From the IMG/VR virus record IMGVR_UViG_3300045988_053705, positions 1 to 44,725 of that record: a DNA stretch of 44,725 nucleotides; one strand, given 5' to 3'. This DNA comes from a virus. The translations under genes and the position numbers were made by a program. Under the pieces are notes generated by a model, which had not been told where the DNA came from, did no database searches, and worked only from the letters and a program-made list of their open reading frames with translations. This document shows positions 12,407 through 35,656 of the stretch, piece by piece (the first letter of the stretch is position 1; each line of letters begins with the position of its first letter).

Positions 12407-12410
12407 TTTC

Positions 12411-13856: not shown

Positions 13857-13930
13857 GCTTTACATTGTCTAGCTGTAACATATCATGACCATACATATCT
13901 TCTTCAGCATCATAGAATATTTCAGTAACA

Positions 13931-15733: not shown

Positions 15734-15736
15734 AGG

Positions 15737-16042
15737 CTATTTACCTTCTTCTAATAATTTCTTTGTGTTCTCTACAGAGGCTTTAGTAGCCTCCATATAT
15801 TTCTTAGCTTGCTCTGCTTTCTTATCTTGTTCAATCTCAATAAGTTTATCAACAGCTTCTAAGATTTCTTTCATAGATTCCTTTACAACAACAGCACCTT
15901 CTTCAAACTGCATCACAGTTCTTTCAGGTTCAGCAAACATCAGAGGTCTTTTAGTAACATCGAAATAGAATGTTGTAGGTTCTTTACCATCTGCTGTAAG
16001 CTCAATAAAAGGTCTCCATTTAGTTTCAGTAATCGTAATCAA
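15737..16042 (-). CDS. Hypothetical acidic, Lys-rich protein
   Basis: ORF track. Confidence 0.4.
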   Translation of the reverse strand: MITITETKWRPFIELTADGKEPTTFYFDVTKRPLMFAEPERTVMQFEEGAVVVKESMKEILEAVDKLIEIEQDKKAEQAKKYMEATKASVENTKKLLEEGK

Positions 16043-16064
16043 ATATCTATCTCCTTTAATATAT

Positions 16065-16913: not shown

Positions 16914-17352
16914 TATCTACAGATGCTTCAAAGATGTCATCATCATCTCCAAAGTCATCATCACCAGAGTACTGTTTGAGTTCTACAATCTTGATTGCAC
17001 CAAGACCTGCAAAAGCTCCAAACTTCTGTGTGTTATATTGATTTACTTTTACGTGTGCTACTGTACCATTGCCAATCTGTGCAAGTTCTGCATCAGTCAT
17101 TAGTCTTTTGATACCTTTATCCATAGTATACACACGAGGTTTAACAGTAGACTTAAGAGTGATAGTAACTTCTCCATCTTTCTCTTTAAGCTTCTGCCGT
17201 TTACTCATAACACCCTCAATAAGTTTTTTATTAGTTTCATCAAGGACTACATCAACTTGATATTTGTTTGATGCAAACTCTCCTTGTGAATTAGGCTTAT
17301 CTAAATAAGACCATTTAAGTTTAACGTTCTTCAACAATACTTCATTTGCCAT
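16894..17352 (-). CDS. Single-stranded DNA-binding protein (T7 gp2.5-like) with acidic C-terminal tail
   Basis: 152 aa with C-terminal DDDFGDDDDIFEASVDSDEDLI. It sits in the replication module between the nuclease and the polymerase. Confidence 0.5.
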   Translation of the reverse strand: MANEVLLKNVKLKWSYLDKPNSQGEFASNKYQVDVVLDETNKKLIEGVMSKRQKLKEKDGEVTITLKSTVKPRVYTMDKGIKRLMTDAELAQIGNGTVAHVKVNQYNTQKFGAFAGLGAIKIVELKQYSGDDDFGDDDDIFEASVDSDEDLI

Positions 17353-17383
17353 TAGTTTCTCCTTACAAATAAACTATACCAGA

Positions 17384-17692
17384 CTATCTCTGATTTGTCA
17401 AGTTACTTTTTATAATAATTTGTTGCTTAACTCTATTGCCTTCTAAAGTACTTAATCTATTCTTTAACTTATTTGTATAGATTCTATCCTTCTCTGTGTA
17501 GGCTCTTCTATCTTCCATAGGTATATCAAACATACTATCACTGGTCATTGTAGAGTCTGGCCAATTCTCTTTGATAAACTCTATAACTTCTTGTGGTTCT
17601 CTTGGTGCATATCCGTGAATAGCATTCTTTATATTGGTACTATGAAAGCCTGTAAAGTTCTCACTGCTGGCTATAACGAAATCAATCTTCAA
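17384..17692 (-). CDS. Hypothetical protein
   Basis: ORF track. Confidence 0.4.
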   Translation of the reverse strand: MKIDFVIASSENFTGFHSTNIKNAIHGYAPREPQEVIEFIKENWPDSTMTSDSMFDIPMEDRRAYTEKDRIYTNKLKNRLSTLEGNRVKQQIIIKSNLTNQR

Positions 17693-17857
17693 CTTTAATA
17701 TACTCCTCTATCAATTTTTCCTTCCAACTGCACGCTTTTAAAAAGTCTTGAAGCTTTCTAGCTAACTCTTCCATATCTAGAGCAGCATCAAAAGACATCT
17801 CAACTGTAGTGTCGTCACACTTATAAAAGAATCTATAAAAGTAATCTCCATTAGACA

Positions 17858-18223
17858 TTACATACTCTCCTTAAATTCTGGATGGTTTGGTAAAAGTAAT
17901 ACAATAGTGTTGTCAGCACAAGTACAATCTTCATAAGGGCTCCATAACATACAATCAAAAAGATGCATAGATATTAGTTTATCTTCTTTATAAAGCCTTT
18001 TAAATTTGTTATTAGTATTCAATATGTTATGCTTAAACACTTCTTCAATCTTTTTAATAGTATGCTTAGAAGCTCTTAAATTAGCATAATGATACTTCTT
18101 ATCGCCCTTGTAGTTATCTTGAATAGCTTTAATAATACCTAAAGAAGTATACAAATCAGCATAACAAAGAATCTTTTTACCTATATCTGTAGGATTAATT
18201 GCAATAGTAATAGTGTTTTCCAA
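17858..18223 (-). CDS. Hypothetical protein
   Basis: ORF track. Confidence 0.4.
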   Translation of the reverse strand: MENTITIAINPTDIGKKILCYADLYTSLGIIKAIQDNYKGDKKYHYANLRASKHTIKKIEEVFKHNILNTNNKFKRLYKEDKLISMHLFDCMLWSPYEDCTCADNTIVLLLPNHPEFKESM

Positions 18224-18623
18224 TCTTTGTTCTCCTCTTAAACTTGTGTGTCCAATGCCCCTTAGGATAATCTTTCAGCACAGTATAATGCTTGCAAATA
18301 TCTTTTGACTTAAATAAATCATGATGATAATACACCATTGAAGCTACTCTTAAAGCTTTACGATACTCTTTATTATCTGCTGGAGATTTATAATCAGCTG
18401 TCCAAGAGAATTGATAAGGCTTATATACTTCTATGTAAGGCTCCCCTCTATTCATTACAACTACAGCAGTAGCTATCTGGTCTTCAATAGAACTATTGCG
18501 TGCTTCAAAATAGATGTTGTATGCTAGAGCTTTAATATTTTTATTGTGTTCATTAGCTTTATATCCCAAAAATAATAAAAGAAACATAAGAGCCATCTTA
18601 AATAATTTATCTATATATTTCAT
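18195..18623 (-). CDS. Secreted or membrane-anchored SleB/CwlJ-like cell wall hydrolase (Hydrolase_2-type domain)
   Basis: N-terminal signal/anchor MALMFLLLFLG, then NIYFEARNSSIEDQIATAVVVMNR, which resembles the SleB family signature (TIYGEARGE...AVA.VVLNR). Confidence 0.45.
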   Translation of the reverse strand: MKYIDKLFKMALMFLLLFLGYKANEHNKNIKALAYNIYFEARNSSIEDQIATAVVVMNRGEPYIEVYKPYQFSWTADYKSPADNKEYRKALRVASMVYYHHDLFKSKDICKHYTVLKDYPKGHWTHKFKRRTKIGKHYYYCN

Positions 18624-18813
18624 AGTGTTTATCCTTTAACAATTTAAGTAATTTCTTCTTAACTAATCTTTTAGAGTTACCTGTATCAAACACCAGCATA
18701 TTACCTGCGCTATCATCGATCCAGCCCATCCATTTATAGACCTTAATAATTTTATCAATATCCTTGTTATATGTTATAACTCCATAAGGACGATACTCTA
18801 TATCTATTGGCAT
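18607..18813 (-). CDS. Hypothetical small protein
   Basis: ORF track. Confidence 0.35.
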   Translation of the reverse strand: MPIDIEYRPYGVITYNKDIDKIIKVYKWMGWIDDSAGNMLVFDTGNSKRLVKKKLLKLLKDKHYEIYR

Positions 18814-18857
18814 ATTTCCTCCTGTTAGTTTACTTTTATAACACCTTCTGGAGAATA

Positions 18858-20669
18858 TCAGTGCGTGTCAAGCCATGTTATACCAATCTTATACTCTCCT
18901 TCTAAAGGACAGAAAGACTTAAAATGTTCTCCTGCATCTCTAATGCACTGCCTTAAAATAATGCCAACAGCTTCAGCATCTTTAGCAGCACAATCCCACT
19001 GCATCTCATCATGAACTACAGCAACTTGGAAAGCATCTAAGCCAGCTTCTTTAATTCTTTTATGTGCTTCTATCATAGCCCACTTCATACAGACAGCTTC
19101 ATAAGCTTGTAAATATGTAGACATAGCAAAGTGTGCATTCTTTAAAGGAACCTTACGTCCATCAAGACCTATGAAGTATCCTATGCTAGCTCTGTATTCA
19201 AGCTCTTGTTTAAACTTTGTCCAACCTTTACAATTCTTTTTAAGATTATCAAAGGCTTCTTTACCTTTCTTAGAGCTACCTAAAAGTCTACCTATTCTAG
19301 CTTCACCAGCTCCCATAATAATTGCAAAGGTACACGTCTTGCCCTTCTTACGTCCTGCTACCATATCCTCATTAGACTCATCGTATTCTTTATCAGCAGG
19401 ATTAAGGCCATATAAAGTACTGAAGTAATAGTGCATATCTTTATGAAGAATATTATAACGCAATGCTTCATCTTTCATATAATGGCACAGACCTCTTAAC
19501 TGAATGTTACTAGCATCGCAACCAACTAATAAGCGTCCTTCATCAACTGTGTACATCTCTCTACAAACTTTACCATAAAGACCTTTAGAAGGAATGTTAC
19601 CAGTATTAGGATTTCTATGTGCCATTCTATGAGTAGCTGTTCCAATACTTAATACATCTCCGTGAACTCTATCATTGCTATCACAAGCATCGAAGTAAGA
19701 TTGTATTAGCGTTGACCTACTCTTAAGAACTTTACATTCTTTTATAAGTTTAAATTCTTCTGGTGCTTCTTCTGTTAAAGTATCTAAGTTCTCTTCACAG
19801 ACCTTTGGTTGACCAGCAGGTGTCATAATGTAAGGCTTCCAATATCCCTTAAGTCTTTCAACAATCTCTGAAGGACTATCTATAGAAAACTCCTTCCACT
19901 CTATTGAATATCTTTTATATACATCAGGTAAACCTGTAGGCTCTACCATACCACTATCAATAATTCTTTGAGAGACGCTGTTGATAGTTCCATCTTTGTT
20001 TCTTCTAACAGCCCACAACTTAGGACTATACTTCTTAACTTCTCTAGGTGGCATAAGCTCTTTAAGCTTAGTAATGATTTCAAAGTATCTATTATCTATT
20101 TCAGCCTTAACAGATTCAGCTAAAGCTCTATTAAGTTTAAATCCTTTCCTATGCTGGAGTGCTAAGATGGCTTGAGAGTACTGCTCAATGTATATTGATT
20201 CTCTGGTGTACCCTTTTAAATCTTGTTGAAGTTGTTTATATACTGCCAGATTGACGTTAACATCTTGGACACAGTACTCTTCCATCTCTTGAGACCACTT
20301 ACTCCAGTCTTCATTATAATCTTTGTATACTCCCAGACGAAGACCCCAATCCCGTAGACTATGAGACTTCCTACTACTGTCAGCCAACCTAGATAGCACA
20401 AGAGTATCAATGATATTGTCAACAGGAATATGAACACCCCACAAAGTATGTAACCAATAAGCATCAAAGCTGATAAAATTGTGACCAATAATCTTTTGAT
20501 AGTTTTTAAAATACTCTCTAGCATTTTCAGAGTCACCTTCTCTAAATATTGTTATCTCATTTGTATCTACATCTCTACAAACACAACACCAGATATGCTT
20601 GCAGTTTTCTATACCATCTGTTTCAATATCACAAACACATCTTTTCATAACATTATCCATATTAAACAT
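18858..20669 (-). CDS. Family A DNA polymerase with 3'-5' exonuclease domain
   Basis: Exo I CDIETDG. Pol motif A-like VGCDASNIQLRGL. Motif B-like GRKKGKTCTFAIIMGAG. Motif C VVHDEMQ. Confidence 0.85.
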   Translation of the reverse strand: MFNMDNVMKRCVCDIETDGIENCKHIWCCVCRDVDTNEITIFREGDSENAREYFKNYQKIIGHNFISFDAYWLHTLWGVHIPVDNIIDTLVLSRLADSSRKSHSLRDWGLRLGVYKDYNEDWSKWSQEMEEYCVQDVNVNLAVYKQLQQDLKGYTRESIYIEQYSQAILALQHRKGFKLNRALAESVKAEIDNRYFEIITKLKELMPPREVKKYSPKLWAVRRNKDGTINSVSQRIIDSGMVEPTGLPDVYKRYSIEWKEFSIDSPSEIVERLKGYWKPYIMTPAGQPKVCEENLDTLTEEAPEEFKLIKECKVLKSRSTLIQSYFDACDSNDRVHGDVLSIGTATHRMAHRNPNTGNIPSKGLYGKVCREMYTVDEGRLLVGCDASNIQLRGLCHYMKDEALRYNILHKDMHYYFSTLYGLNPADKEYDESNEDMVAGRKKGKTCTFAIIMGAGEARIGRLLGSSKKGKEAFDNLKKNCKGWTKFKQELEYRASIGYFIGLDGRKVPLKNAHFAMSTYLQAYEAVCMKWAMIEAHKRIKEAGLDAFQVAVVHDEMQWDCAAKDAEAVGIILRQCIRDAGEHFKSFCPLEGEYKIGITWLDTH

Positions 20670-20839
20670 ATACTCTCAATAATTAGATCTATACAAAGAA
20701 GACACTCTACTCTTTCTTGGAGCTTATAAGCAGACACTGTCCACACTTTACCAGTAATTATAAATCTTATACTACCTATAGTAAACAGTAGAAATAATAA
20801 CACTATTGTAATCATCTTATCCCTCCAATAACCAGTCAA
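20645..20839 (-). CDS. Small hydrophobic protein
   Basis: ORF track, one transmembrane helix. Confidence 0.3.
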   Translation of the reverse strand: MTGYWRDKMITIVLLFLLFTIGSIRFIITGKVWTVSAYKLQERVECLLCIDLIIESICLIWIML

Positions 20840-21323
20840 TAGTTACTCGTTGTTCTCTTGCAATTCTTATTAAGTATTTAATAGGTACTGATTTAGTTCT
20901 ACCAAAGTAGGCATTACATATTGCAGCTGTAATAAGTGGGTTCTTTCTATCTACATAGGCACTTGAATAGAGCTTACGTAGATTACCAAAAGTAATTTTA
21001 GAAACTTTGTAGTGTTCTTCATCACCCCCCAGTATAGCATATTGAAAACTTATGTCAAGTCTTTTACACAATTTTGCCAGCCCTTTTAAGTTAGGAAGAA
21101 TACAAAGATATTCAAAACGCTTATACAAATCTCGTGCAGTATACCCAAGAACTATAGAAGCTCTATTTAGATTACCATAGCGATCAATAAGTATGTTCTT
21201 AAGTCTGTCGATACAGTTAAGGATTATATAATACTCTGTTTCAAAATCTAAATAGCTTGTTAAATCTCTGTATCTTTCTTTTGTGTATTTGTTTCTATCA
21301 AGCACAGAGGTAATTCCTTCCAT
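20817..21323 (-). CDS. Hypothetical protein, possibly a helix-turn-helix DNA-binding regulator
   Basis: Two HTH-like segments (GLAKLCKRLDISFQYAILG and IRIAREQRVTIDWLLEG). Weak evidence. Confidence 0.35.
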   Translation of the reverse strand: MEGITSVLDRNKYTKERYRDLTSYLDFETEYYIILNCIDRLKNILIDRYGNLNRASIVLGYTARDLYKRFEYLCILPNLKGLAKLCKRLDISFQYAILGGDEEHYKVSKITFGNLRKLYSSAYVDRKNPLITAAICNAYFGRTKSVPIKYLIRIAREQRVTIDWLLEG

Positions 21324-21535
21324 AAACTAGATTTAAATTTAAATTCAAAACTTGTGATATAAATATAAGAAGCATAAGAAAATACGCTATCATATTCTTC
21401 AAAAGCATGTATAGTTTCTTGAATACTTTTTAAGTTATATGTAATAGCACCTTTATTTATATTATAAAGTGTATTGCAAGCTTTTGCTATAGTATCATCA
21501 TCTTTATTAGGTAATTTTATAATATAAATAGGCAT
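21260..21535 (-). CDS. Hypothetical protein
   Basis: ORF track. Confidence 0.35.
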   Translation of the reverse strand: MPIYIIKLPNKDDDTIAKACNTLYNINKGAITYNLKSIQETIHAFEEYDSVFSYASYIYITSFEFKFKSSLWKELPLCLIETNTQKKDTEI

Positions 21536-21783
21536 TACAATTCTCCTAGCTCCTGCTTATTAACAAAATCATACCTAATAATATCCCCATCTTTCTTATT
21601 TTTCCCATAGAAACACCAGCAGTTATATTGCTCAACCCTTAAAGAAGGAATATTATCTTCTCCATTATACATTCCTACATAGCTTATACCCTCCTTTAAG
21701 AAGGGAAATTCACCACTGTTAATAAGCTTTTAGTATATTCTATAAATGTCTCAGGCTTATTATCAGGCAATAAAAAGTAATAG

Positions 21784-23409
21784 TTACTCATCTTCAAAAT
21801 CCTCTAATGAAGTTTCAATAAGTCTTGTAGTTTCATTATCATATACAACAGCAGATGCAGGACCCTTAACACCAAAGTCTCTATTCTTTAATACTCTAAG
21901 GACAGTTGTGTTAGCTTTAGTAGGGTTCTCATCCTGACTATTTCTTTCGAGACCTATAACAATATCTGATAACTGTTTAATGCTTGAAGAGCTTTTCAAA
22001 TCATCAAGAGATACGTGACCACCTTCTTCGTGTGTCTTTGTAGCATTAGCAGACTTACGAAGATGACAAGCAGCAAGTACAACAAGCCCTTCTTCAACAG
22101 CAATCTTCTTAAGTTCTGACATAAGTCTATTAAGTTTAGCTGTTGTGTTCTCATCACTGCCTTCTGCAACCATTGTAATATGGTCTAAGATAATAACTTT
22201 ACAATCTCTAGCCTTTGATAGATATCTAATCTTATCTATTAACAGGTCTATGTCATCAAAGTCAAAGCCATCAAACAAGTCTAATCTATTACCTTGACAA
22301 GAGTCATCAAACCATTTCTTTAAATCTTCTTGAGTCTGCGCCTTCCATATATCAGGCTTACGTAGATTCTTACCAGCTTCTAAAGACATTAAAGATATTG
22401 CTGTATCCTCTGCCACCTCTTCAAGAAAGAAAGCACCGATACGAACTGATGAAGTCTTTAATAGATGCTGAATAAAAGTCTTTAAAAACAATGACTTACC
22501 TTGGCCCGTACCTGCTGCAAATACAATAACTTGTGAAGGTCTTACACCATATATCATTTCATTAACACCATTCCAAGGTGTTGGTAGATATTGTCTAGTC
22601 TTATTAAACTCTTGAAGTCTATCCCAAAGCTCTGACATAGTTACAATATCTTTAGGTTTATATTCTTCAGCCTTCCACCAGAGATTCTTAAACTCTTCCA
22701 CCTTACCTGCCTTAAGAAATTCACTAGCATCCTTCAAGTCATCAGGCATTTTTACAATAGTTACTTTCTTCGGTGGAAGAACTGCTGCAATCTTCTGTGC
22801 ATTCTTACGTCCTGCTTCATCACCATCAAAGCATAGCACAATATGGTCGAAGCTATCTAAGTATTCATAGTTCTCTTTAATGCTTTTTACATCTGTGCAT
22901 CCACTTTTGACAGACACAACAGGATACTTACTGCCTTGCATTTGAAAGACTGACATAGCATCTAGCTCTCCCTCTGTAACAGTAATGTAAGAACCTTTGG
23001 CAGGGAATACATTTTGTCCAAAGAGTGTTGCAGGCTTAGCAGGACCTAGCCAATGGAACTGTTTACCAGATACTGTTCTCACCTTTTGAGCTACAAACTT
23101 ACCCTCTTTATTATAATAAGGATAGATGTGCTGAGCAATACCACCAGCTTTAACAATAACTTTGACACCAAACTTTTTACAAGTATCTGCTGTTAGCTTT
23201 CTATCAGGAATGCCATCAGCTGGATAAAGTCCTGCTTCAGGTTTAATATCTTTTAAAGTTTCTTCATCCATATACACAACCTCTTTAACGCTATTCTTTC
23301 TATAGGTGTTACAACTAAAGCAATAAGAAGAACCATCATCATACATTGATAAGGCATCGTGACTTCCACAGTCTTCACAAGGCTGATGCGCTCTTATTAA
23401 ATTAGCCAT
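21784..23409 (-). CDS. Bifunctional DNA primase/helicase (T7 gp4-like: zinc ribbon, TOPRIM, DnaB-like helicase)
   Basis: CEDCGSHD...CFSCN zinc ribbon. TOPRIM FDGDEAG. Walker A AAGTGQGKS. Walker B VIILDHI. Confidence 0.9.
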   Translation of the reverse strand: MANLIRAHQPCEDCGSHDALSMYDDGSSYCFSCNTYRKNSVKEVVYMDEETLKDIKPEAGLYPADGIPDRKLTADTCKKFGVKVIVKAGGIAQHIYPYYNKEGKFVAQKVRTVSGKQFHWLGPAKPATLFGQNVFPAKGSYITVTEGELDAMSVFQMQGSKYPVVSVKSGCTDVKSIKENYEYLDSFDHIVLCFDGDEAGRKNAQKIAAVLPPKKVTIVKMPDDLKDASEFLKAGKVEEFKNLWWKAEEYKPKDIVTMSELWDRLQEFNKTRQYLPTPWNGVNEMIYGVRPSQVIVFAAGTGQGKSLFLKTFIQHLLKTSSVRIGAFFLEEVAEDTAISLMSLEAGKNLRKPDIWKAQTQEDLKKWFDDSCQGNRLDLFDGFDFDDIDLLIDKIRYLSKARDCKVIILDHITMVAEGSDENTTAKLNRLMSELKKIAVEEGLVVLAACHLRKSANATKTHEEGGHVSLDDLKSSSSIKQLSDIVIGLERNSQDENPTKANTTVLRVLKNRDFGVKGPASAVVYDNETTRLIETSLEDFEDE

Positions 23410-23720
23410 TACAATTCTCCAAGCATAGTTCTATCTGTATAAAGCTGTACAAATCTCATCCTACTTAATAAAGAATGTTTACAAAGATTAATCCAGCTTA
23501 GATTTTCTTCTCTTACGCACTCATAAGATGAAGTAACTGCAGAACCATCGTCACAAACTTCAACAAAGCATACAGTAGGTTCACCATTTCTAAATTCTTC
23601 ACGAATATATCTCGACCTACGCTTTATATTATATTTCTTTCTAAGCCAAGCAGCAGCTTTAACAGCTCCTTTCTTGCCTTGTCCAAAATCTGAACAAACT
23701 ACATAATGAATTAAAGCCAT
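23409..23720 (-). CDS. Hypothetical protein ending in LGEL
   Basis: ORF track. Its stop overlaps the start of the primase gene. Confidence 0.4.
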   Translation of the reverse strand: MALIHYVVCSDFGQGKKGAVKAAAWLRKKYNIKRRSRYIREEFRNGEPTVCFVEVCDDGSAVTSSYECVREENLSWINLCKHSLLSRMRFVQLYTDRTMLGEL

Positions 23721-23894
23721 TTTAATCTACTCCTTTTAAAGCTCTGATAGCTATTGATGGCATACTGGTATAACCTACAGCTTCATCATATGCAATCTTT
23801 ATTAAAGCTTTTTTATATCTTCTATGGCTTTCATAGAACTTATACAAAAGAACTGCATCAATCAACAAAAGCATTATTAATATAATAGATGTAA

Positions 23895-24119
23895 TCATTT
23901 CACACTCCTCTCAAATAAACCACAATGACATCTTCCTTTAGTCATCAACTCTGTTCTACAAAGCTGTGACATACAATAGTGTTCAACATCATCAGGATAA
24001 CAAGGACAAGCATACTCATCAATGTTTCTTTCTTTAATCTTACAAATTCTATCAGCATTCTTTGAAAGAACTGCTCCGTTTTCTTCTGCAATTCTTTGCA
24101 TAGTATCTTTAACAGACAT
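23895..24119 (-). CDS. Small Cys-rich protein with a ferredoxin-thioredoxin reductase catalytic-subunit-like cluster
   Basis: ACPCYPDDVEHYCMSQLCRTELMTKGRCHCGLFE compared with the FTR catalytic chain pattern CPC...CPC...CHCxLF. The terminal CHCGLF matches CHCMLF. Confidence 0.35.
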   Translation of the reverse strand: MSVKDTMQRIAEENGAVLSKNADRICKIKERNIDEYACPCYPDDVEHYCMSQLCRTELMTKGRCHCGLFERSVK

Positions 24120-24370
24120 TATATTTCTCCTAATGTAATATTAAGTGGTCCTAGATAGTGTTTAAATGCACCACTATTAAAAAACTTGTTAACCTCTATG
24201 TTGTACAGATACCAGCTATAAATGAAATGGTTTTGAATAAGTAATTTATCTTTTGGTTTAGCTCCATCATAATCTGGTAAATTATTAAGCAAAAAATAAT
24301 TCATATTATCGTTAGAATATAACATACAAATACTCTTTTTGTATAGGATAGGAACATACTTATACATCAC
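24119..24370 (-). CDS. Small paralogous early protein (family with ...GAF...TLGE[IL] C-terminus)
   Basis: C-terminal SGAFKHYLGPLNITLGEI resembles the C-terminus of the 28640..28915 product. Confidence 0.4.
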   Translation of the reverse strand: MMYKYVPILYKKSICMLYSNDNMNYFLLNNLPDYDGAKPKDKLLIQNHFIYSWYLYNIEVNKFFNSGAFKHYLGPLNITLGEI

Positions 24371-24657
24371 AGCTCTCCAATTCTATAGTAATCATTTTTA
24401 AGAATAAGACTGTCATCATATAATCCATCTGTTACATTTTTAAGATCTAATGCCCAAGAATAGGAGAAACCCTTTTGTTCTCGCTGCGAACAGTAAGCTC
24501 CATTCCAACAGGCATCATTACTCAAGAAGTAAAAAGTCCTCGAGCCTTTATAAAGAACACCCTCTGTACCTTTAAAAGAACAATAGGAAAATTCTGGCAG
24601 GTTTTTTATAAACACTTTTGTAATCTTCATTATCCATTCTCCTTTAAAAATATACAA
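24367..24657 (-). CDS. Small early protein (C-terminus YYRIGEL)
   Basis: ORF track, coupled to the neighbouring genes. Confidence 0.4.
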   Translation of the reverse strand: MYIFKGEWIMKITKVFIKNLPEFSYCSFKGTEGVLYKGSRTFYFLSNDACWNGAYCSQREQKGFSYSWALDLKNVTDGLYDDSLILKNDYYRIGEL

Positions 24658-24851
24658 AGACGTTTAGAAGAACCTTCTTCAGATAATTCACCATCCTCAT
24701 AAGCACTACGAATAGCTATAGAAGATACAGGATAAGCCCATAGACTATAGCTAGTATCAACCGCACAAGAAACTTCAATGTCTTCCTTATACTTATTCAG
24801 TTCTTGTATAAGTTCTTTCACAGTCATTGTATTTCTCCTAAAGTTACACAT
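24630..24851 (-). CDS. Small early protein. The true start is probably the internal ATG near 24827, directly after a GGAGAAATACA ribosome-binding site.
   Basis: ORF track plus the ribosome-binding-site position. Confidence 0.35.
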   Translation of the reverse strand: MCNFRRNTMTVKELIQELNKYKEDIEVSCAVDTSYSLWAYPVSSIAIRSAYEDGELSEEGSSKRLCIFLKENG

Positions 24852-25099
24852 CCTAAAGTAACTAAGACAGGCTCAAGTGAAGGTTCCTCAGAAAGACATC
24901 TTTTAATATTTGCATAAGACATTTCCTCTGGTCTAAATAGTCCATCATATAGACAATAATAGCCTTCTCCTCCGCGTCCTTCAAATATATAATCATAGTA
25001 ATGTTTTCTGTCACCTTTAAAATTATCTTCAAAGAATTTTAAATACTCTTTCACAGGTATATTCTTATCTACTTTAATATACATAAATGTATTTGACAT
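24824..25099 (-). CDS. Small early protein (C-terminus TLGEIQ)
   Basis: ORF track. Confidence 0.4.
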   Translation of the reverse strand: MSNTFMYIKVDKNIPVKEYLKFFEDNFKGDRKHYYDYIFEGRGGEGYYCLYDGLFRPEEMSYANIKRCLSEEPSLEPVLVTLGCVTLGEIQ

Positions 25100-25104
25100 C
25101 GTAG

Positions 25105-25314
25105 CTATTCCTTTATAGATTTATCAATGTACTCTATAAGTTCTACATCAGACATTGAAGATGCCTTTACATATACATCATCCTCATATATATCTTTATA
25201 GATTTTGTTACAATCATTGATTGCTTTTCTACAAGAAGAACAAATACAAACAAAGGAACCATCAGGGTCTTTCCTAAAGTTGGTAGTCTCCCTATCACAT
25301 ATATAACAATGCAT
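25105..25314 (-). CDS. Small zinc-finger protein
   Basis: CYICD...CICSSCRK Cys pairs. Confidence 0.4.
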   Translation of the reverse strand: MHCYICDRETTNFRKDPDGSFVCICSSCRKAINDCNKIYKDIYEDDVYVKASSMSDVELIEYIDKSIKE

Positions 25315-25774
25315 CTAAACATTCTCCTGCAATTGGTGGTGTGCCAATAACCTCAGTATCTTTAAAAGCAGAGTAGCACTTGTCAATAAGCTTAAGAGGT
25401 TCTTTTAAATCTTCATCTTTGATACTGGCAGTACCCTCTTCATAGCCACAACAAGCAGCACCTTTAATATCTACTGTGTTATCATTGAAGTTCAACGTGA
25501 TACCTGTTACAGTCTTCTTAGGTTTCTTACGCCCTACTAAAGGGTCTAATGCAATAAGTATCGTGTCATTCTCTACAGCATATAGAGAAGCTTCAACAGT
25601 GCTTTTATAAGGTCCTACTATATTACCTTTATCATCTGATAAATATACTTTACCATATTCAAATAACTTATGCATCATAAATATCCTTCCACCAATGCTT
25701 AGGGTATACTGTTGCAGATGTAGGAGTGTAATCAGCAGGCTTAGAAGCGTAATGTACAAAGTCTCCTTTAACAA
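25295..25774 (-). CDS. Hypothetical protein with N-terminal hydrophobic segment
   Basis: ORF track. LYITLLSLLITLL. Confidence 0.4.
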   Translation of the reverse strand: MLKETLYITLLSLLITLLHLQQYTLSIGGRIFMMHKLFEYGKVYLSDDKGNIVGPYKSTVEASLYAVENDTILIALDPLVGRKKPKKTVTGITLNFNDNTVDIKGAACCGYEEGTASIKDEDLKEPLKLIDKCYSAFKDTEVIGTPPIAGECLDALLYM

Positions 25775-26459
25775 CTTTCTCTACATCATTTAAGATTTCT
25801 TTAAGTCTATTAAAATCTGTGTATTCATCTTTAGTATGTGGTCCAAAGTATGCAACAGACATATTAACAGACTCTTTATGCTTACATATTGTTTGTGTAT
25901 CAGACATACCTCCAGTAGTAACAAAGTAACCATTGTTAAAAAAGTTCTTAAGGTTATGTGCAAGAGCTTGGCAATATACTGTTGCACCACCCTTATTAAG
26001 TATGTCATAGTTTCCTTTTCTATCCAGCACAAGACAATAAGAAGCTGTTGACTCCTCTATATAAGGGTTTACTTTAGCTATTCCAAAGCCTCCGCATTCT
26101 TCACACTCTGAAATAATAAAGTCAAACTTATAACCCTTTTCAAGGAGCTTGAGAATAATCCACACACCATTCTTATCATCAGCACCTAAAGAAGTCCTTT
26201 GCCATTTGCTATTAAAGGCTGCAATATTTCCAATAGAATCTTGATAGAAATGTGCAGGCTTACCATTAGTATCTACCTGGTCTAAGTGAGCTGATAACAT
26301 AACCTTATTGTTCTTTGTAAAGCTATAGATAGTGTTACCAACCCTTTTATAAACTACCTTAAGACTGTCAAGCTTTGCACAAATCCAATCACAGATTTCT
26401 CTTTCACCATCAGTTTGACCAACTGAATAGATAGAATAAAGTTTTATTAAATCTTTCAT
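25668..26459 (-). CDS. MH-clan (M20/M28/M42-like) zinc metallopeptidase or deacylase catalytic domain
   Basis: Ordered metal-ligand motifs SAHLDQVD (H-x-D), LGADDKNG (the GxxDDKxG bridging-Asp motif of PepT/M20 and M28 enzymes) and SECEECGGFG (EE motif). Confidence 0.5.
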   Translation of the reverse strand: MKDLIKLYSIYSVGQTDGEREICDWICAKLDSLKVVYKRVGNTIYSFTKNNKVMLSAHLDQVDTNGKPAHFYQDSIGNIAAFNSKWQRTSLGADDKNGVWIILKLLEKGYKFDFIISECEECGGFGIAKVNPYIEESTASYCLVLDRKGNYDILNKGGATVYCQALAHNLKNFFNNGYFVTTGGMSDTQTICKHKESVNMSVAYFGPHTKDEYTDFNRLKEILNDVEKVVKGDFVHYASKPADYTPTSATVYPKHWWKDIYDA

Positions 26460-26463
26460 AAGC

Positions 26464-28143
26464 TTACCTTTTAAATACTTGTATTGTTACTTTGTCATCT
26501 TCAACAACTCTCAACAAGATAGCATCTAAAGAAGTCTCTTTAATGTATCCTTTAAGATGTTCTTTCAAAGACTTTAAAGAAGGCATAGATACTGAAGAAT
26601 TAATACCTTTATAAAGATATAAACATCCTTCAGAGAATACATTTCTATCTGTTCTGGCACCTCTAATACCGAAGTGAGAAGTAGAAATTTCACGTGAAGA
26701 AGATGTGATAGAATCTAATAGAATGCCACCATTAATATAAGTAATGACAGCAAGAGATGAAACAGGACTTGAAAAATACTTTGAGTATTCGTGTTTACTC
26801 TTTTCTTCAGGAATATTTAAACCTGTTATAGGACATCTCTTAGGTGTAAAGAGAACACCATTAACGATAACGCTAGGATTATCTAAGTTTATAGTGCCAA
26901 TGCTACTACAAGACTTTGCATATGTAAGGAAATCAGAGTAATCTCTCATCCATTCTGGAATATACTCTGCATCAATATTGATACCACAGCCATACTTAAA
27001 GTCTACTTTATTTCTTCTGTTATCAGCTATTAAAGAATCTGAATAGAACTTTAATTCTTCTCTAAAGATTCTATACAATCCTTTGCCTCCATTAAAAAGA
27101 CTTCTTCTCTCATCTGAACTATGAGGACCATCACAGATAGCATTGAACTTATCTTTTAAGAACTTGCAACAGAATTCAATAAGAAGATTGTAGTCACTGT
27201 TACGATACTTTTTATCAAGCAACAAGTTTTTATTTTCATCAGCATATCCCCAAGCTCTCCATAACATATTAGGACTATGGAATTTTGTGCCAGAGATAAC
27301 AGATGTTTTCATCACATCCCCTGTAGTTCCATACACAATAAAGCTTTCATCAGCTGTTACAAAAGGAACAAAGCCATACCAACATTTATAATTAGATGAT
27401 AGAGCAAAGCAAGATTGAAAAGCATTACCATAAGAACAATAGAAATAATCAATAGGATTCTTAGAGATAACAATAGCTTTCATTTCAGAGTACATAGAGA
27501 GCCTATCTGTTTGCTTACGTTCAACAAGGAACTGCTTAAGTCTGTATCTATCAACTTCTGAAAGAGGAATGAAGATACGATTGTTAGTAACTTTAAAGTC
27601 TTTGAAAGCTTCAAGTACAAACTCGTGTTCCTTATTAGCGTACTCATAGATTTCTTTACCAAGTCCATTAGGATATTGTGACAAAGCTAGTAAAGCTTTC
27701 AATTCTTCCAAAGGATTAAGAGACTTCAAAGGACAGTCAACAGATTGAGAGTAATCAAAGGAAGCATCAATTTCATCCATATGCTTTTTGAAATCAGGAT
27801 TTAACAGACACTCATCAATATCAGGATAAGCATCAATACCAGCAGCTTTAAGGAGTCTTAAAGTATCAATGTAATTATCGAAAGATACTGTTAAAGATAC
27901 TTTACCTTCAATCTTTTTAAGATACTCTTCATTTATCAACGAATAAACTTTCTTATCTCTGAGAACATAGCTATTAAATACTTCCAAGAACTCTTTAAGT
28001 TTATCATCGATAGCCATAATAAAGGTATCACTTTCAGATTTATCTATCTTTGAAAGGTCTTCTCTCTTCATTTTAGACACATCAATATCTTTAAACAATA
28101 ATTCAATAGCTCTAAAAGCTCTTATAATCTCTTCGTTTTGCAC
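26464..28143 (-). CDS. Large early protein of unknown function (559 aa)
   Basis: Uninterrupted ORF, first large gene after the early-region terminator. I recognise no motifs. Confidence 0.5.
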   Translation of the reverse strand: MQNEEIIRAFRAIELLFKDIDVSKMKREDLSKIDKSESDTFIMAIDDKLKEFLEVFNSYVLRDKKVYSLINEEYLKKIEGKVSLTVSFDNYIDTLRLLKAAGIDAYPDIDECLLNPDFKKHMDEIDASFDYSQSVDCPLKSLNPLEELKALLALSQYPNGLGKEIYEYANKEHEFVLEAFKDFKVTNNRIFIPLSEVDRYRLKQFLVERKQTDRLSMYSEMKAIVISKNPIDYFYCSYGNAFQSCFALSSNYKCWYGFVPFVTADESFIVYGTTGDVMKTSVISGTKFHSPNMLWRAWGYADENKNLLLDKKYRNSDYNLLIEFCCKFLKDKFNAICDGPHSSDERRSLFNGGKGLYRIFREELKFYSDSLIADNRRNKVDFKYGCGINIDAEYIPEWMRDYSDFLTYAKSCSSIGTINLDNPSVIVNGVLFTPKRCPITGLNIPEEKSKHEYSKYFSSPVSSLAVITYINGGILLDSITSSSREISTSHFGIRGARTDRNVFSEGCLYLYKGINSSVSMPSLKSLKEHLKGYIKETSLDAILLRVVEDDKVTIQVFKR

Positions 28144-28157
28144 TTTACTTCTCCTAC

Positions 28158-28187
28158 ATAAAAGAATACGGGGAGCAAAGCTCCCCG
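28158..28187 (-). terminator. Rho-independent terminator on the minus strand
   Basis: Perfect 8-bp GC-rich stem CGGGGAGC/GCTCCCCG with a 3-nt loop. On the minus strand it is followed by TATTCTTTTAT. It lies between the 125-aa and 559-aa genes. Confidence 0.7.
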
Positions 28188-28204
28188 ATTACACAAGCCT
28201 ACTA

Positions 28205-28582
28205 TTAGTCTAAGCTAATGATTTTAGACCCAAGTCTTTCTTCATCATACTTAAGGCCAGTCTTGTAATGACAATCATTATCACCAGCAACACGAGTGTA
28301 CCAGCCTTTATTATCCTTTTGAAGAACCTCAGTTACAGTTCCCCAAGTATGTTTAGTACCTGTACCATCCTTTTTAATGTGGCATACCATAACTCTATCA
28401 CCTACATTAAAGTCTGTGTAAGGCATTTCAGGAGCTGCTGCCTCAGACGAAACAACATTGACAGTGATGTTTACAGAATCACCAGCAGCTTTTTTCAAAT
28501 CAGCAATCAGTTTGTTAATATCCAACATATTCTTTTCCTTTTCTATTAAGTTAAAACAAGCCCTCTTAAGGGCGGCTATCAT
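28205..28582 (-). CDS. Hypothetical early protein. The start is possibly the internal MLDINKL.
   Basis: ORF track. Confidence 0.4.
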   Translation of the reverse strand: MIAALKRACFNLIEKEKNMLDINKLIADLKKAAGDSVNITVNVVSSEAAAPEMPYTDFNVGDRVMVCHIKKDGTGTKHTWGTVTEVLQKDNKGWYTRVAGDNDCHYKTGLKYDEERLGSKIISLD

Positions 28583-28639
28583 AGCTGTTACCAGCTTATG
28601 AATCTTTCAGAACCATATTTAAAACACCTACTGCAATCA

Positions 28640-28915
28640 TTAAAGTTCTCCTAATGTAATTTGAGACTGATTATATCTTATATAATTTCCTCTGCGTATT
28701 GTATCATTATAAGAGACACTTCCAAAAACTTGATATATGTATTCAAAAGCTCCTGTCTTCCTTATAATAACAGGCTGATGGATATTATTTTCGATAACGT
28801 GTTCAAGCCATCTACAATAGCGCTCTCTAAATGTAACATTAAAAAGAGCATTTAAATTATTAATAACTTCTTTAGGCTGAAACAACACAGCTTTATTAAG
28901 TTCCCATTTATACAT
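28640..28915 (-). CDS. Small early protein, paralogue of the 24119..24370 family (C-terminus ...GAFEYIYQ...QITLGEL)
   Basis: Shared GAF...ITLGE[LI] C-terminal block. TAGGAGAATTATAAAATG ribosome-binding site. Confidence 0.45.
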   Translation of the reverse strand: MYKWELNKAVLFQPKEVINNLNALFNVTFRERYCRWLEHVIENNIHQPVIIRKTGAFEYIYQVFGSVSYNDTIRRGNYIRYNQSQITLGEL

Positions 28916-29163
28916 CTTTATAATTCTCCTAAGAATATCAATTTATTAGTAGAGCAATCTGTGTACGGACTGTTAAAATTATAATAAGAACCACCTAAAT
29001 AAGTAATTATAACAGGTGTCTCAAGATTAGCTCTCATTACTGAGTTTATATAATGGTAACACAGTATGTAAATACTTATTAAGCACTCCACAATTAAAAA
29101 AGACTGGTGTATTTTCTACAAAAGAATACATTTTACAATTCCTTATTGTGTTTTAAAAAGTAC

Positions 29164-29192
29164 TTGACAACCTCTATAAAGTGTTGTATAAT
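29164..29192 (+). promoter_or_regulatory. Exact consensus sigma70 promoter (TTGACA-N17-TATAAT) on the plus strand, pointing against the leftward early genes
   Basis: TTGACA at 29164..29169, a 17-nt spacer, then TATAAT at 29187..29192. Confidence 0.6.
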
Positions 29193-29199
29193 AACCTTG

Positions 29200-29497
29200 T
29201 AGGTTGCCAGGGGGTGATACTATTATTAAAGATATATTAATAGTCTATTAATAGTCTTTTAAAAGACTTGTAATAGCTGTATTAGCTTTAATATTTCTCT
29301 TAAGATTCTTACAGTATGTTAAAGAGTCTTTAACAGCAGTATAATCTTTAATATCTATTATACCTTTATTATCTTTAATAGTCTTTAATAGACTTATTCT
29401 ATCTTTTAACAGCTCTATTCTACTGTTTAAATCTTTTAAAGACTGTTTATACTTATTAGATAACATTATTAATTACTCCCTATTAAAAACTATTAAA
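29200..29497 (+). ncRNA. Candidate noncoding RNA of about 300-400 nt, running from the consensus promoter to the long hairpin terminator. It is antisense to the doubtful 72-aa minus-strand ORF.
   Basis: No plus-strand ORF longer than 5 codons between the promoter and the terminator. The region is built from reiterated TCTTTAA(C/T)AG and TCTATTAATAG motifs. Confidence 0.4.
29248..29466 (-). CDS. Doubtful 72-aa Lys-rich ORF. It lies entirely within the repeat-built candidate noncoding RNA region.
   Basis: ORF track only. Low complexity, overlapped by the promoter-to-terminator unit on the opposite strand. Confidence 0.2.
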   Translation of the reverse strand: MLSNKYKQSLKDLNSRIELLKDRISLLKTIKDNKGIIDIKDYTAVKDSLTYCKNLKRNIKANTAITSLLKDY

Positions 29498-29590
29498 GCC
29501 CTTATACAGGACTTGTTAAAGTCTATTAAAAGAATAACTCTTAACTGTCTTTAACAAGTCCTGTATAAGGGCTCTTGGTTTTGTGTTAAT
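29498..29590 (+). terminator. Perfect 25-bp inverted repeat with a 25-nt loop, followed by a T-rich tract. Likely a bidirectional terminator.
   Basis: 29498..29522 AGCCCTTATACAGGACTTGTTAAAG is the exact reverse complement of 29548..29572. It is followed by CTTGGTTTTGTGTTAATTTTATTT. Confidence 0.6.
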
Positions 29591-29591
29591 T

Positions 29592-29861
29592 TTATTTACT
29601 TAGTATTTGTATAGCTTTAACTACTCCAACACTATAAAAGTCTTTTAGAGTATAACCAGCACTACACCATTTATTAATTATAAAATCTCTTGTGTCTTTA
29701 TCAATGCCGTTGTTATTGTCTCTGATAGATAGTTTATGTTTTCTATTAGCAATAATAGTCTTGTGTTGTTCTGTTAAAGTTATTCTGTAGTGTGTACGGC
29801 TATTTAAGTTGCCTTTATGTGTTCTATTTTTAACAGATTCTTTTATGTGTGTTACCTTCAT
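29592..29861 (-). CDS. Hypothetical early protein (89 aa, basic)
   Basis: ORF track. It lies downstream of a CCGTACAG motif. Confidence 0.4.
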   Translation of the reverse strand: MKVTHIKESVKNRTHKGNLNSRTHYRITLTEQHKTIIANRKHKLSIRDNNNGIDKDTRDFIINKWCSAGYTLKDFYSVGVVKAIQILSK

Positions 29862-30256
29862 AGTATAATATCCCTTTTAAAAGCTGTTTAAAGCCCGTAC
29901 AGTACACTCTTTTAGTTTTTATGATAGACTATACCAGAAAACTATAAAACCCTCTGTACGAACCTTAAAAAGCCTCTCTAACAGTTTGGCAACTGCAATC
30001 GTACACCATAAAGATGTATCTTGCACCAAACTTTTAAAGACTGTTTACAGTAGGTGCAGTTGTAAACAACCATTTAAAGGCACTTTTTAAGGGCGTACAG
30101 AAGAAAGTTTATAATAAGGCATAAGTTATACCAAATTTTAAATAACCCCTGTCTATAGTCCTTAAAATAGCTTTTAAACTATGTCCTTAGCCAGTTAATA
30201 AATCCATAACTAACTATCAAAAGGCTACTAACAGTTTGCTAATAGCCCTTTTATAG

Positions 30257-30751
30257 CTATTTATAAGACTCTAACTGTGTCTTTAAAGTGCTCAAGTCTG
30301 CAATAGTTTTATCGGTTAAATGTAGCTTTTCTTTGCTTTTGATAGCCTTGTTAAGAAAGCTATTAAAACTTGATAGCATTGTTCTTAAGTCTTTAAAGTC
30401 TTCCGTGACTTTAACAGATACTTTCAAGTCATACCAGCAGTGATCAATAATGTAGCCATTAACCTGCAAAGGCTGATTATCAACTGTTACAATCTGCAAA
30501 TTGCCTTTATCATTGCTTTTGAGGGCTTTGATGTTAGAGCATTTTGCAAGGTACCATTTGATAATTTGAACGTCCTTAGGTGCTACAGCTCCCAATAAGT
30601 CCTGCAAAGGTTTACTGTTACGACTTAAAGCGCCTTCATAGTTGTTCAAAAAGACTTCAATAGAATCTTGCACAGTTGTTTCGTACTTCTGTCTGCTGTT
30701 TTTAATAGTCTTAAGGTTGCTAGCCAAGATTTGTAAAGCTGTTTGTGTCAT
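30257..30751 (-). CDS. First gene of the leftward early block (164 aa), function unknown
   Basis: ORF track. It sits at the divergent junction. Confidence 0.5.
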   Translation of the reverse strand: MTQTALQILASNLKTIKNSRQKYETTVQDSIEVFLNNYEGALSRNSKPLQDLLGAVAPKDVQIIKWYLAKCSNIKALKSNDKGNLQIVTVDNQPLQVNGYIIDHCWYDLKVSVKVTEDFKDLRTMLSSFNSFLNKAIKSKEKLHLTDKTIADLSTLKTQLESYK

Positions 30752-31080: not shown

Positions 31081-31380
31081 ATTTTTATAGTTGTTAACAG
31101 TTTGTTTTTGTTGGTTAAAGTTGGTTAAGGGTTGTTAATAGGTTGTTAAGGATTAATAAAATTATTAACAACCGGTTACAGTTGGTTAAAGACTGTTGCA
31201 AGCTGTTGCAAGCGGGCCTGTTAAAGTCGGTTACAGTTGGTTAAAGACTGTTGCAAGCTGTTAAGGGGGTTGTTGCAAGCTGTTGCAAGCTGTTAAGGGG
31301 GTTGTTGCAAGCTGTTGCAAGCTGTTGCAAGCTGTTGCAAGCTGTTAAGGGGGTGGCAAGGGGGTGTTGGGGGCTGTTTA
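31081..31380. repeat. Iteron-like tandem and direct repeat array with G5 tracts. Candidate replication origin or regulatory array.
   Basis: At least 10 copies of the 10-bp unit GCTGTTGCAA. The 34-bp direct repeat GGTTACAGTTGGTTAAAGACTGTTGCAAGCTGTT occurs at 31174..31207 and 31229..31262. GGGGG tracts lie at 31265, 31297, 31349, 31360 and 31369. The array is intergenic, at the divergent junction. Confidence 0.6.
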
Positions 31381-31460
31381 AGGTTCAATAATACGTCGTA
31401 AAAATTTCTCCACAAAATTCCAGCAACTGGAGGCAGACTGTAAACAAGTTATTGACATGC

Positions 31461-31560
31461 CTCTAGGAGCCCGTAGGAAGCCCGTACAGAAGCTTTTAAA
31501 GACTGTCAGCAGTAACTCTACCAGACTTTTACAGATTGCTCTGTACAGCCTTCCTAGGAG
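31461..31560. promoter_or_regulatory. Imperfect palindrome of about 100 bp (CTAGGAG..GGAAGCCCGTACAGAAG ... CTCTGTACAGCCTTCCTAGGAG) directly upstream of the late promoter. Candidate operator.
   Basis: Half-sites CCCGTACAG at 31481..31489 and CTGTACAG at 31541..31548, about 60 bp apart. The same motif pair occurs at 29894..29902 and 29954..29960. Confidence 0.45.
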
Positions 31561-31574: not shown

Positions 31575-31603
31575 TTGACAATTCTTAATAAATATGTTAT
31601 AAT
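31575..31603 (+). promoter_or_regulatory. Exact consensus sigma70 promoter (TTGACA-N17-TATAAT) of the rightward structural operon
   Basis: TTGACA at 31575..31580, a 17-nt spacer, then TATAAT at 31598..31603. It lies 30 nt upstream of the first late gene, which has an AAGGA ribosome-binding site. Confidence 0.65.
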
Positions 31604-35436: not shown

Positions 35437-35656
35437 AGTATCTGCAGCTGAGAGAGAGTCTTTTAAAAGACTTATAAAAGATGCTGCACCAGTGCTACAA
35501 TTAATTGATAAGTGCTGTATTGAAGACTTTGATAAAGCTGACAAGATATCTGATGAAGACTTTAAGAATCCTAACTGGGCTATTGAACAAGCTTACAAGT
35601 TAGGTCTTAAAAGAGGCTTGACAAAGTTGCGTGAATATGTTATAATAGAACTGTGA
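35414..35656 (+). CDS. Hypothetical small protein between portal and scaffold
   Basis: ORF track. Confidence 0.35.
   Translation: MRNKLLCKVSAAERESFKRLIKDAAPVLQLIDKCCIEDFDKADKISDEDFKNPNWAIEQAYKLGLKRGLTKLREYVIIEL

Follow-up and report, generated by a model that had tools for sequence, protein, structure and literature searches.

A conserved promoter-leader cassette facing the early genes of an uncultured T7-like podovirus as a candidate convergent-transcription gate

The locus and its genes

We analyzed a promoter that faces the early genes, and the apparently non-coding unit behind it, in the IMG/VR virus record IMGVR_UViG_3300045988_053705, which was taken at its full length of 44,725 nucleotides (nt) and is referred to below as the window. 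The window is a complete, circularly closed assembly (119 nt are identical at both ends) of a podovirus-like phage of ~44.6 kb and 35% GC. Its minus strand carries a block of genes (11978-30751) in which small early genes are followed by a T7-type replication module consisting of a primase-helicase (phrog_239, E = 1e-168), a PolA DNA polymerase (phrog_17, E = 9e-113), a Cas4-like exonuclease, a resolvase and RNase H, and its plus strand carries the structural and lysis genes. Rz-like spanin genes among the latter indicate a Gram-negative (diderm) host. Scans of the open reading frames (ORFs) of the window against PHROGs and Pfam recognized neither a phage RNA polymerase (RNAP) nor a Q-like antiterminator. 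The TerL protein is ~50-55% identical to those of ICP2/Zobellviridae-like and Methylophilales phages, and no closer. Comparisons were made with uncultured phage relatives, whose loci are labelled L001-L147, and their loci were oriented with the early genes on the plus strand when promoters were compared. The features of the locus, together with all exact consensus promoters of the window, are the following.

29164-29192, plus strand: exact sigma-70-type promoter of cassette 1 (TTGACA at 29164-29169, 17-nt spacer, TATAAT at 29187-29192; 12/12 match to the consensus)
29193-29205, plus strand: start-site palindrome AACCT-TGT-AGGTT, a candidate operator; the predicted +1 (~29199) falls inside it
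29209-29219, plus strand: Shine-Dalgarno (SD)-like purine tract AGGGGGTGATA with no start codon after it, at +11 to +21 of the predicted RNA
~29199-29585, plus strand: predicted non-coding transcript of ~385 nt, its ends placed from the geometry of promoter and hairpin
29235-29262, no strand assigned: tandem 11-mer TATTAATAGTC x2.5, containing the CTATTAATAG palindrome (called by TRF)
29243-29532, both orientations: dispersed motif family GTCTWTWA / AGTCTTT(T)AA, 9 copies (from an enrichment count)
29248-29466, minus strand: early gene whose 72-aa product is modelled as a two-helix alpha-hairpin; the predicted antisense RNA covers the whole gene
29480-29476, minus strand: SD sequence GGGAG of the 72-aa gene, 9 nt before its ATG and complementary to a site in the 3' part of the predicted antisense RNA
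29497-29573, both strands: long inverted repeat (arms 29497-29532 / 29538-29573), a candidate bidirectional terminator
29574-29590, plus strand: U-rich tail after the hairpin (CTTGGTTTTGTGTTAAT), read from the sequence and from a terminator-like site call
588-616, 31575-31603, 35618-35646 and 29164-29192 (plus strand) and 11974-11946 (minus strand): the five exact promoters found by a pattern search of the window

An earlier note on this DNA had described an exact consensus promoter opposing the early genes, and this was borne out. The promoter of cassette 1 sits between two early genes, pointing against them. Eight relatives (L006, L007, L008, L009, L012, L019, L020 and L023) have it at this position without a mismatch, and there is no consensus promoter at the locus in L021 and L022. 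The boundary that it occupies, where the small immediate-early genes end and a series of paralogous ~90-aa genes begins, is conserved too, the flanking proteins of these relatives having diverged to 27-80% identity, and the spacer is similar across cassettes (...TAAAGTNNTG). Very strong selection on the antisense promoter is supported by these comparisons. The pattern TTGACA-N17-TATAAT occurs five times in the window versus 0.12 expected from shuffles. Three of the five sites lie just upstream (20-30 nt) of plus-strand genes (588 before the gene at 636, 31575 before 31633 and 35618 before 35653), so exact consensus sites appear to be working promoters for this phage; the remaining two, 29164 on the plus strand and 11974 on the minus strand, have no ORF behind them. 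Structural and late genes have perfect host-type promoters, and the early block has only imperfect ones (for example at 31067, 30982, 21058 and 17401 on the minus strand).

The same note had placed no ORF between this promoter and a perfect 25-bp inverted repeat with a T-tract. For the plus strand the statement holds, as no ORF of at least 20 aa was found within 29203-29590, but it fails for the minus strand, where the 72-aa gene is real (see below). The inverted repeat was confirmed: its 36-nt arms are 89% complementary around a 5-nt loop, the outer 25 bp (29497-29521 / 29549-29573) being perfect, and they contain the conserved motif TTATACAGGAC. The repeat is followed by CTTGGTTTTGTGTTAATTTTATTT on the plus strand and by TTAATAGTTTTTAATAG on the minus strand, terminator-like sites were called on both, and the hairpin is a candidate terminator both for the antisense RNA and for the immediate-early genes encoding 164-aa and 89-aa proteins. 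The best reading of cassette 1 is that of a genuine and conserved unit transcribed by the host RNAP, with a predicted transcript.

The minus-strand ORF of 72 aa had been taken for a probable artefact of the repeats, a view that had to be abandoned. Its frame is open at p = 2.5e-4 by composition shuffling, its SD sequence and ATG are conserved, and an SD-like purine run is kept in the relatives (GGGAG in the window and L002, AGGAG in L001, GGAAG in L009, AAAGGAA in L007 and L008). Homologs of the product (P0001-P0006) share 61-96% identity, one of them with an in-frame 18-nt (6-codon) deletion, and distant full-length homologs are encoded in L020 (69 aa, 41%), L023 (61 aa, 35%) and also L006 (65 aa). 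Judged by these sequence comparisons the ORF is a genuine gene, and the predicted RNA is therefore cis-antisense to a genuine gene in this phage. The AF2 model of the protein (pLDDT 86) consists of helices 4-32 and 39-71; Foldseek returned generic matches only (uL29, MexA hairpin, E ~1), with no function assigned, and tblastn of the protein against GenBank phages returned no match.

The gene evolves unusually with respect to its neighbors. Compared with L007 and L008, its synonymous divergence (pS) is 0.25-0.36 and its nonsynonymous divergence (pN) 0.19-0.24, with omega ~0.6-0.7, against pS of 0.5-0.76 and omega of 0.11-0.24 in neighboring genes. Only 14-17% of the codons for identical amino acids differ synonymously in the 72-aa gene, versus 40-42% in the neighbors (p = 4.5e-4 and 2.8e-3), and the deficit is gone in the comparison with L020, whose homologous ORF is not inside the unit (37% vs 44%). 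Because synonymous sites are abnormally conserved only where the unit overlaps, a nucleotide-level element must overlap the 72-aa gene in this clade.

The leader, its second copy and the DNA that follows

Including the second copy described below, nine instances of the cassette could be compared. All nine carry a palindrome of 4-6 bp that starts 0-2 nt after the -10, and its arms change in compensating pairs (AACCT/AGGTT, ACCTTT/AAAGGT, ATCTTT/AAAGAT, ATGTTT/AAACAT and GGAC/GTCC), a covariation given here without a formal pair-count statistic, the MAFFT alignment of the nine cassettes having lost the register of the palindrome. A palindrome of at least 4 bp is found in 11/118 (~9%) unrelated promoters of the same geometry. 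The tract that the earlier note had seen at the predicted 5' end is present as GCCAGGGGGTG at 29207-29217. GGTRATA lies 20-22 nt after the -10 in 8/9 instances, and L019 retains only GGGGG; the leader tract of L147 is GAGGGTTGATA, extended-SD-like forms among the cassettes are GGGGGTGATA, GAGGTGATAC and AAAGGTAATA, and the leader tract is also written GGGGGTGAT. There are -10-like hexamers in the leader at ~+20 (TACTAT; TATAAT in L020).

No conserved ATG, GTG or TTG and no conserved peptide follows the SD-like tract in the nine instances. A micro-ORF at this place was considered and rejected, as ATT, ATA, CTG and ATG starts give unrelated peptides of 2-12 codons. The pattern TTGACA-N17-TATAAT-N20-22-GGTRATA is not cassette-specific, having at least 120 matches in a scan of IMG/VR, and 91/120 matches of this geometry were ordinary starts in which a promoter and a ribosome-binding site (RBS) lead into an ORF. 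Since the geometry usually precedes an ORF and none is present here, the cassette looks like the front end of an mRNA without its gene, and its leader like a 5' untranslated region lacking a gene.

The leader is the only part common to cassette 1 and to a second copy elsewhere in the window.

11974-11917, minus strand: second promoter-leader cassette (cassette 2), with TTCTTTAGAAGG and GGCCGAGGTAATACTA; promoter TTGACA-N17-TATAAT at 11974-11946

Cassette 2, whose leader is very similar to that of cassette 1 (TTCTTTAGAAGGTTGGCCGAGGTAATACTA), stands directly after RNase H, the last early gene. Its promoter is directed at the 3' end of the late operon, where the o-spanin gene (11760-11918), the i-spanin gene (11588-11833) and the gene of a 46-aa membrane protein lie on the opposite strand. 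The same arrangement is found in L025 (3431-3548) and L147 (2941-3060; RNase H 57% identical); L025 belongs to 032974, a distant relative in which the leader of cassette 2 is identical to that of cassette 1 of the same phage (L006). In L025 and L147 a bidirectional intrinsic terminator lies ~60-70 nt after cassette 2, which predicts an RNA of ~80 nt. No terminator was found after cassette 2 in the window, where the cassette runs straight into the o-spanin gene.

What follows cassette 1 varies among the relatives. In the window, L007 and L008 the predicted RNA crosses the 72-aa gene and its RBS and stops at the long hairpin, which in L007 and L008 has the same position and a different sequence. 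The 30-nt core of this hairpin is inverted between L007 (4933-4962) and L008 (996-1025), with 15/30 identities in direct comparison and 29/30 as reverse complement, which suggests a palindrome-mediated inversion. In L020, ~270 nt of non-coding DNA come next after the promoter and leader. They consist of CTGTTAACAG-, CTGATATCAG- and AGACTTGTATAAG-type motifs arrayed around a 46-nt core of ~7% GC and lead to a long hairpin (15 perfect outer bp) with a U-tract. The L003 locus was dropped, as it was a word match only. A megablast search with 28600-30300 gave no match among GenBank phages, and the nearest annotated phage, MW202697 (TerL 55% identity), was set aside, as it has consensus promoters without the cassette. 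Six cases share a common architecture (cassette 1 in the window, L007, L008 and L020, and cassette 2 in L025 and L147): a bidirectional hairpin closes the oncoming operon, and the orphan promoter with its leader fires toward this hairpin from the other side.

The promoter-to-terminator non-coding RNA unit proposed in the earlier note therefore stands as a conserved ORF-less unit with a hairpin and U-tract in the window, L007, L008 and L020, but not as a conserved RNA structure. The predicted RNA does fold well, with a minimum free energy (MFE) of -109 kcal/mol and z = -7.4, but no better than its complement (z = -9.4), and which strand is functional cannot be read from the folding energy. In the MFE structure the 5' GGGGGUGAU pairs with AUUACUCCCU, the complement of the SD sequence of the 72-aa gene. 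Hairpins formed by the short motifs are limited to 3-6 bp. The covariation that the note had suggested looking for in the RNA body was not found by RNAalifold among five relatives: the covariation term was positive (penalizing), two-sided change occurred in 3/61 predicted pairs, and the best-conserved helices were invariant, so that there is no evidence of a conserved fold in the RNA body. Rfam gave 0 matches at the gathering score in the whole window, and sub-threshold miRNA-like matches on the inverted repeat were discarded as a reflection of the long hairpin only.

The DNA behind the leader is rich in short motifs, though not quite in the form first reported. Of the at least 8 copies claimed for (A/G)TCTTT(T)AA(C/T)AG, a strict search recovered 4 and the relaxed pattern TCT[AT]TT?AA[ACT]AG recovered 7, but the enrichment of the motif family is strong: counted over both strands, GTCT[AT]T[AT]A occurs 9 times in 408 nt versus 0.31 expected (29-fold, Poisson 6e-11), with k-mer enrichments of 13-45-fold at the locus. 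Likewise, the unit said to occur twice at 29236-29259 (TCTATTAATAG) is exact only once, the repetition being that of the tandem 11-mer, which reaches into the 72-aa gene at its 3' end and has no counterpart in L007 and L008. The family includes a 15-nt palindrome, TTAAAGAGTCTTTAA, at 29319-29333 and the 13-mer AGACTTGTAATAG at 29264-29276, which is identical in the window and L020. At the same locus it is 6-16-fold enriched in L007, L008, L019, L020 and L021, the last two of which carry it in non-coding DNA, and no enrichment was found in L023 and L006, which have the cassette. The sequence TTATACA(A/G)G(A/T)C, which forms the hairpin arms of the window, recurs in L020 (x4), L021 (x3, direct) and L007 in different relative orientations. 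As the motifs recur in varied orientation, they seem to behave as sequence-specific sites and not as mere stem-forming sequence. The segment 29221-29620, starting 29 nt after the -10, has the lowest GC content of any 400 nt in the genome (23.2%) and holds three of its four least stable 50-mers.

A possible convergent-transcription gate and its alternatives

A cis-acting convergent-transcription element fits the architecture of the six cases best. The exact promoter and its retention in eight diverged relatives, the compensatory changes of the palindrome and the constraint on synonymous sites of the 72-aa gene also speak for it. Our preferred reading, put forward tentatively and as possible rather than probable, is that the unit is a cis-acting convergent-transcription and antisense gate of the lambda pO/oop type. 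The host RNAP would start an ORF-less plus-strand RNA at ~29199 and end it at ~29585, and head-on polymerase traffic together with the fully complementary RNA would back up the hairpin terminator. The RNA, which would cover the whole 72-aa ORF and its SD sequence, would silence that gene, and the gate would control the passage of early transcription to the replication genes downstream. The role in the early-to-middle transition suggested in the earlier note is plausible. The start-site palindrome would be the likely operator at which a phage protein shuts the promoter off and releases the gate, and the second cassette would guard the convergence point of early and late transcription in the same manner.

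Several observations weigh against such a gate. Antisense complementarity to the target is not conserved: in L020 the 69-aa homolog is found only beyond the hairpin, in L023 the RNA first overlaps a different ORF of 94 aa, and the ~80-nt cassette 2 RNA of L025 and L147 overlaps no coding sequence. In L019, L023 and L006 no terminator was recognized behind cassette 1, and L021 has a comparable non-coding array without a consensus promoter. Interference alone accounts neither for the SD-like leader nor for the motif arrays. Finally, neither room nor signal was found for a separate promoter of the genes downstream of the gate; a permanently active gate would therefore be harmful, and the model needs the putative repressor.

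The main rival, which we hold to be unlikely while giving it real weight, is a replication origin primed or activated by transcription in the style of T7. In such an origin the host RNAP would supply the primer or open the AT-rich duplex, the motifs would be iterons or loading sites for the primase/helicase, and the orphan consensus promoters would act as phi1.1A/B, phiOL and phiOR do in T7. That a promoter without an mRNA function is followed directly by the lowest-GC 400 nt of the genome agrees with this, as do the encoded T7 gp4-like primase-helicase, PolA and RNase H in a phage in which no RNAP was found, and the two ORF-less promoters per genome are reminiscent of T7, where every origin is a promoter (PMC8373140). 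The arrays are conserved in position and not in coding status (non-coding in L020 and L021, with the ~7% GC core in L020), and the motifs flip in orientation between relatives with their sequence kept, as expected of protein sites; location inside a gene is no obstacle, since the iterons of lambda ori are so placed (PMC6022878). However, cassette 2 lacks both a motif array and a marked AT-rich block and meets a terminator after ~60 nt in L025 and L147, the cassettes of L023 and L006 lack the motif enrichment, the arrays of L021 lack the promoter, and the promoter is of the sigma-70 consensus type and not of the type used by single-subunit phage RNAPs. The repeats (8-13 nt, the motifs themselves being 8-12 nt) occur in both orientations at irregular spacing (11, 55, 60 ... 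nt), unlike the at least three regular direct repeats of ~17-22 bp of classical iteron origins, GTC/GAC primase cores are only 1.6-fold enriched (p = 0.08), no cognate initiator protein was identified in the window, and GC skew tracks gene orientation and is uninformative on the origin. DNA-level iterons, one of the functions that the earlier note had listed, are a live option. We see a limited chance that the promoter-leader cassette, with its two paralogs in each genome, represents a new family of ORF-less RNA genes in phages. The conserved function of these genes would reside in the 5' module, made up of the start-site palindrome and the extended SD sequence that lacks a start codon, either as a ribosome- or 30S-engaging non-coding RNA or as the host-RNAP-primed origin of T7-like podoviruses that lost their own RNAP, the antisense overlap being secondary.

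We consider it rather improbable that both cassettes make self-contained, trans-acting non-coding RNAs to which the antisense overlap is incidental, with a leader that binds 30S subunits as a 5' stabilizer or decoy or with motifs that serve as a protein sponge. The sharing of the leader alone between cassettes 1 and 2 speaks for such RNAs, and cassette 2 of L025 and L147 has the classical anatomy of a small RNA (leader, single-stranded purine tract, intrinsic terminator with U tail, ~80 nt); GGGGGUGAU and GAGGUGAU can pair over 8-9 bp with the canonical 16S 3' end (the canonical anti-SD and not the host's own 16S), and untranslated SD-like 5' stabilizers are known as STAB-SD (PMC5737220, PMC7509114). 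These points have to be set against an RNA body without conserved structure, covariation or Rfam match, the documentation of STAB-SD mainly in hosts with RNase J1 when the spanins indicate a Gram-negative host, the lack of GGTRATA in L019, the 3-6-bp limit on hairpins formed by the short motifs, and the promoterless arrays of L021. A late promoter like lambda PR', making a short RNA until an antiterminator permits read-through of the hairpin into the late operon 2.4 kb downstream, would account for a strong constitutive promoter with an ORF-less, terminated RNA upstream of the late genes and in their orientation, and the -10-like hexamers at ~+20 could cause sigma-dependent pausing; it is nevertheless very improbable, as the late genes are preceded by exact promoters of their own (31575, 35618 and 588), with equivalents in L007 and L021, cassette 2 is antisense to all late genes, and the protein scans of the window recognized nothing Q-like. 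Equally hard to credit is that there is nothing special at the locus except the 72-aa gene beside a chance or vestigial promoter-like sequence. The gene is real, and AT-rich DNA does give many weak promoter-like matches (25 vs 16 expected in 4 kb), but a 12/12 site with an expectation of ~0.12 per genome is exact in eight diverged relatives with its spacer, palindrome and leader conserved, and it is duplicated elsewhere in the genome.

Neighboring genes and comparison with known systems

The gene of the 89-aa immediate-early protein (29592-29861, minus strand) lies directly upstream of the bidirectional hairpin and is conserved in every relative examined. The N-terminal half of the protein is basic and probably disordered, and a low-confidence model (pLDDT 64) shows a three-helix bundle at the C-terminus. 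The protein is a candidate regulator that would bind DNA or RNA, either at an operator or as an antiterminator; no sequence match was found in the PDB, and the single-sequence model was too poor for a fold search. The gene just downstream of the cassette (MYSFVENTPVFF..., 28918-29131, minus strand) is apparently split into ORFs of 34 aa and 57 aa in different frames, the close relatives L001 and L002 differ by indels at this gene, with ATG changed to ATA in L002, and the gene may be decaying or variable. The paralogous early proteins of ~90 aa (28640-28915 and 28918-29091, minus strand, and the equivalents in L006 and L008) end in ...GEL* (or GAL, GTL or GSL), and the terminal codons GGAGAATTATAA of their genes constitute the SD sequence of the next gene, a repeated translational-coupling junction. 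Further along, a 559-aa protein (26464-28143, minus strand) without match in Pfam or PHROGs is family-wide, with 42-55% identity in the relatives. The divergent intergenic space between early and late genes (31110-31486) is densely filled with tandem repeats (TGTTGCAAGC x7, a 32-nt unit x2.5 at 100% identity, and others) and may mark a genome terminus, a packaging region or a regulatory region.

A phage that relies on the host RNAP alone, with perfect promoters even for its structural genes, raises the question of how its expression is timed. If the gate reading is true, a pair of orphan promoters of maximal strength that meet oncoming operons head-on at their ends would give the phage a simple means of timing and insulation for which the host RNAP suffices; alternatively, the cassettes could be the missing origin-priming promoters of T7-like phages without an RNAP. 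The locus is also a case of overlapping function, in which synonymous change of a real gene is significantly suppressed in the overlap, and annotation should retain both the 72-aa gene and the antisense unit. The compact cassette, with promoter, putative operator, leader and bidirectional terminator, is a candidate insulator or strong-promoter part for synthetic biology.

Lambda offers the closest parallel to the gate. There, pO lowers oncoming pR transcription beside ori and modulates replication (PMC3985674, PMC5869508). As in the pO/oop system, a strong orphan promoter inside the early operon points against it, a short ORF-less RNA, here a predicted one ending at a candidate intrinsic terminator, is complementary to a small early gene, and an AT-rich motif region overlapping coding sequence lies beside it. 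In contrast, oop is a 77-nt RNA over the 3' end of cII, whereas the ~385 nt predicted here span a whole gene and its RBS; the SD-like leader, the start-site palindrome and the second paralogous copy are additional to the lambda arrangement, and there is no sequence or Rfam relationship. This phage is moreover a T7-like podovirus of virulent type with no sign of lysogeny genes.

The T7 origins (the primary phi1.1A/B, phiOL and phiOR) resemble the cassettes in that several promoters per genome have no mRNA role and are followed by AT-rich DNA, in phages with a gp4-type primase-helicase and a PolA-type polymerase (PMC8373140). They differ in being promoters for the phage RNAP, where the present ones match the host sigma-70 consensus and no phage RNAP was found, and in having no reiterated motifs, palindrome or SD-like leader; cassette 2, on its side, is not AT-rich. 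The leader itself can be compared with STAB-SD elements (Bacillus thuringiensis cryIIIA, B. subtilis mRNAs, mycobacterial katG), in which a 5' SD-like sequence is likewise unused for translation start (PMC5737220, PMC2358910). Here too the SD-like tract is close to the 5' end and lacks a start codon at the distance needed for initiation, and it could hold a 30S subunit and thereby protect the RNA; STAB-SD elements are, however, documented on mRNAs of Gram-positive or RNase J hosts, whereas the present RNA has no ORF and the spanins indicate a Gram-negative host. Finally, the early antisense transcripts of PAK_P3/PAK_P4 and phiR1-37 are phage antisense RNAs against genes of other temporal classes (PMC5563952, PMC4848604), as proposed here; they were defined by RNA sequencing and lack a conserved promoter-leader cassette, while the unit described here is known from the conservation of its sequence.

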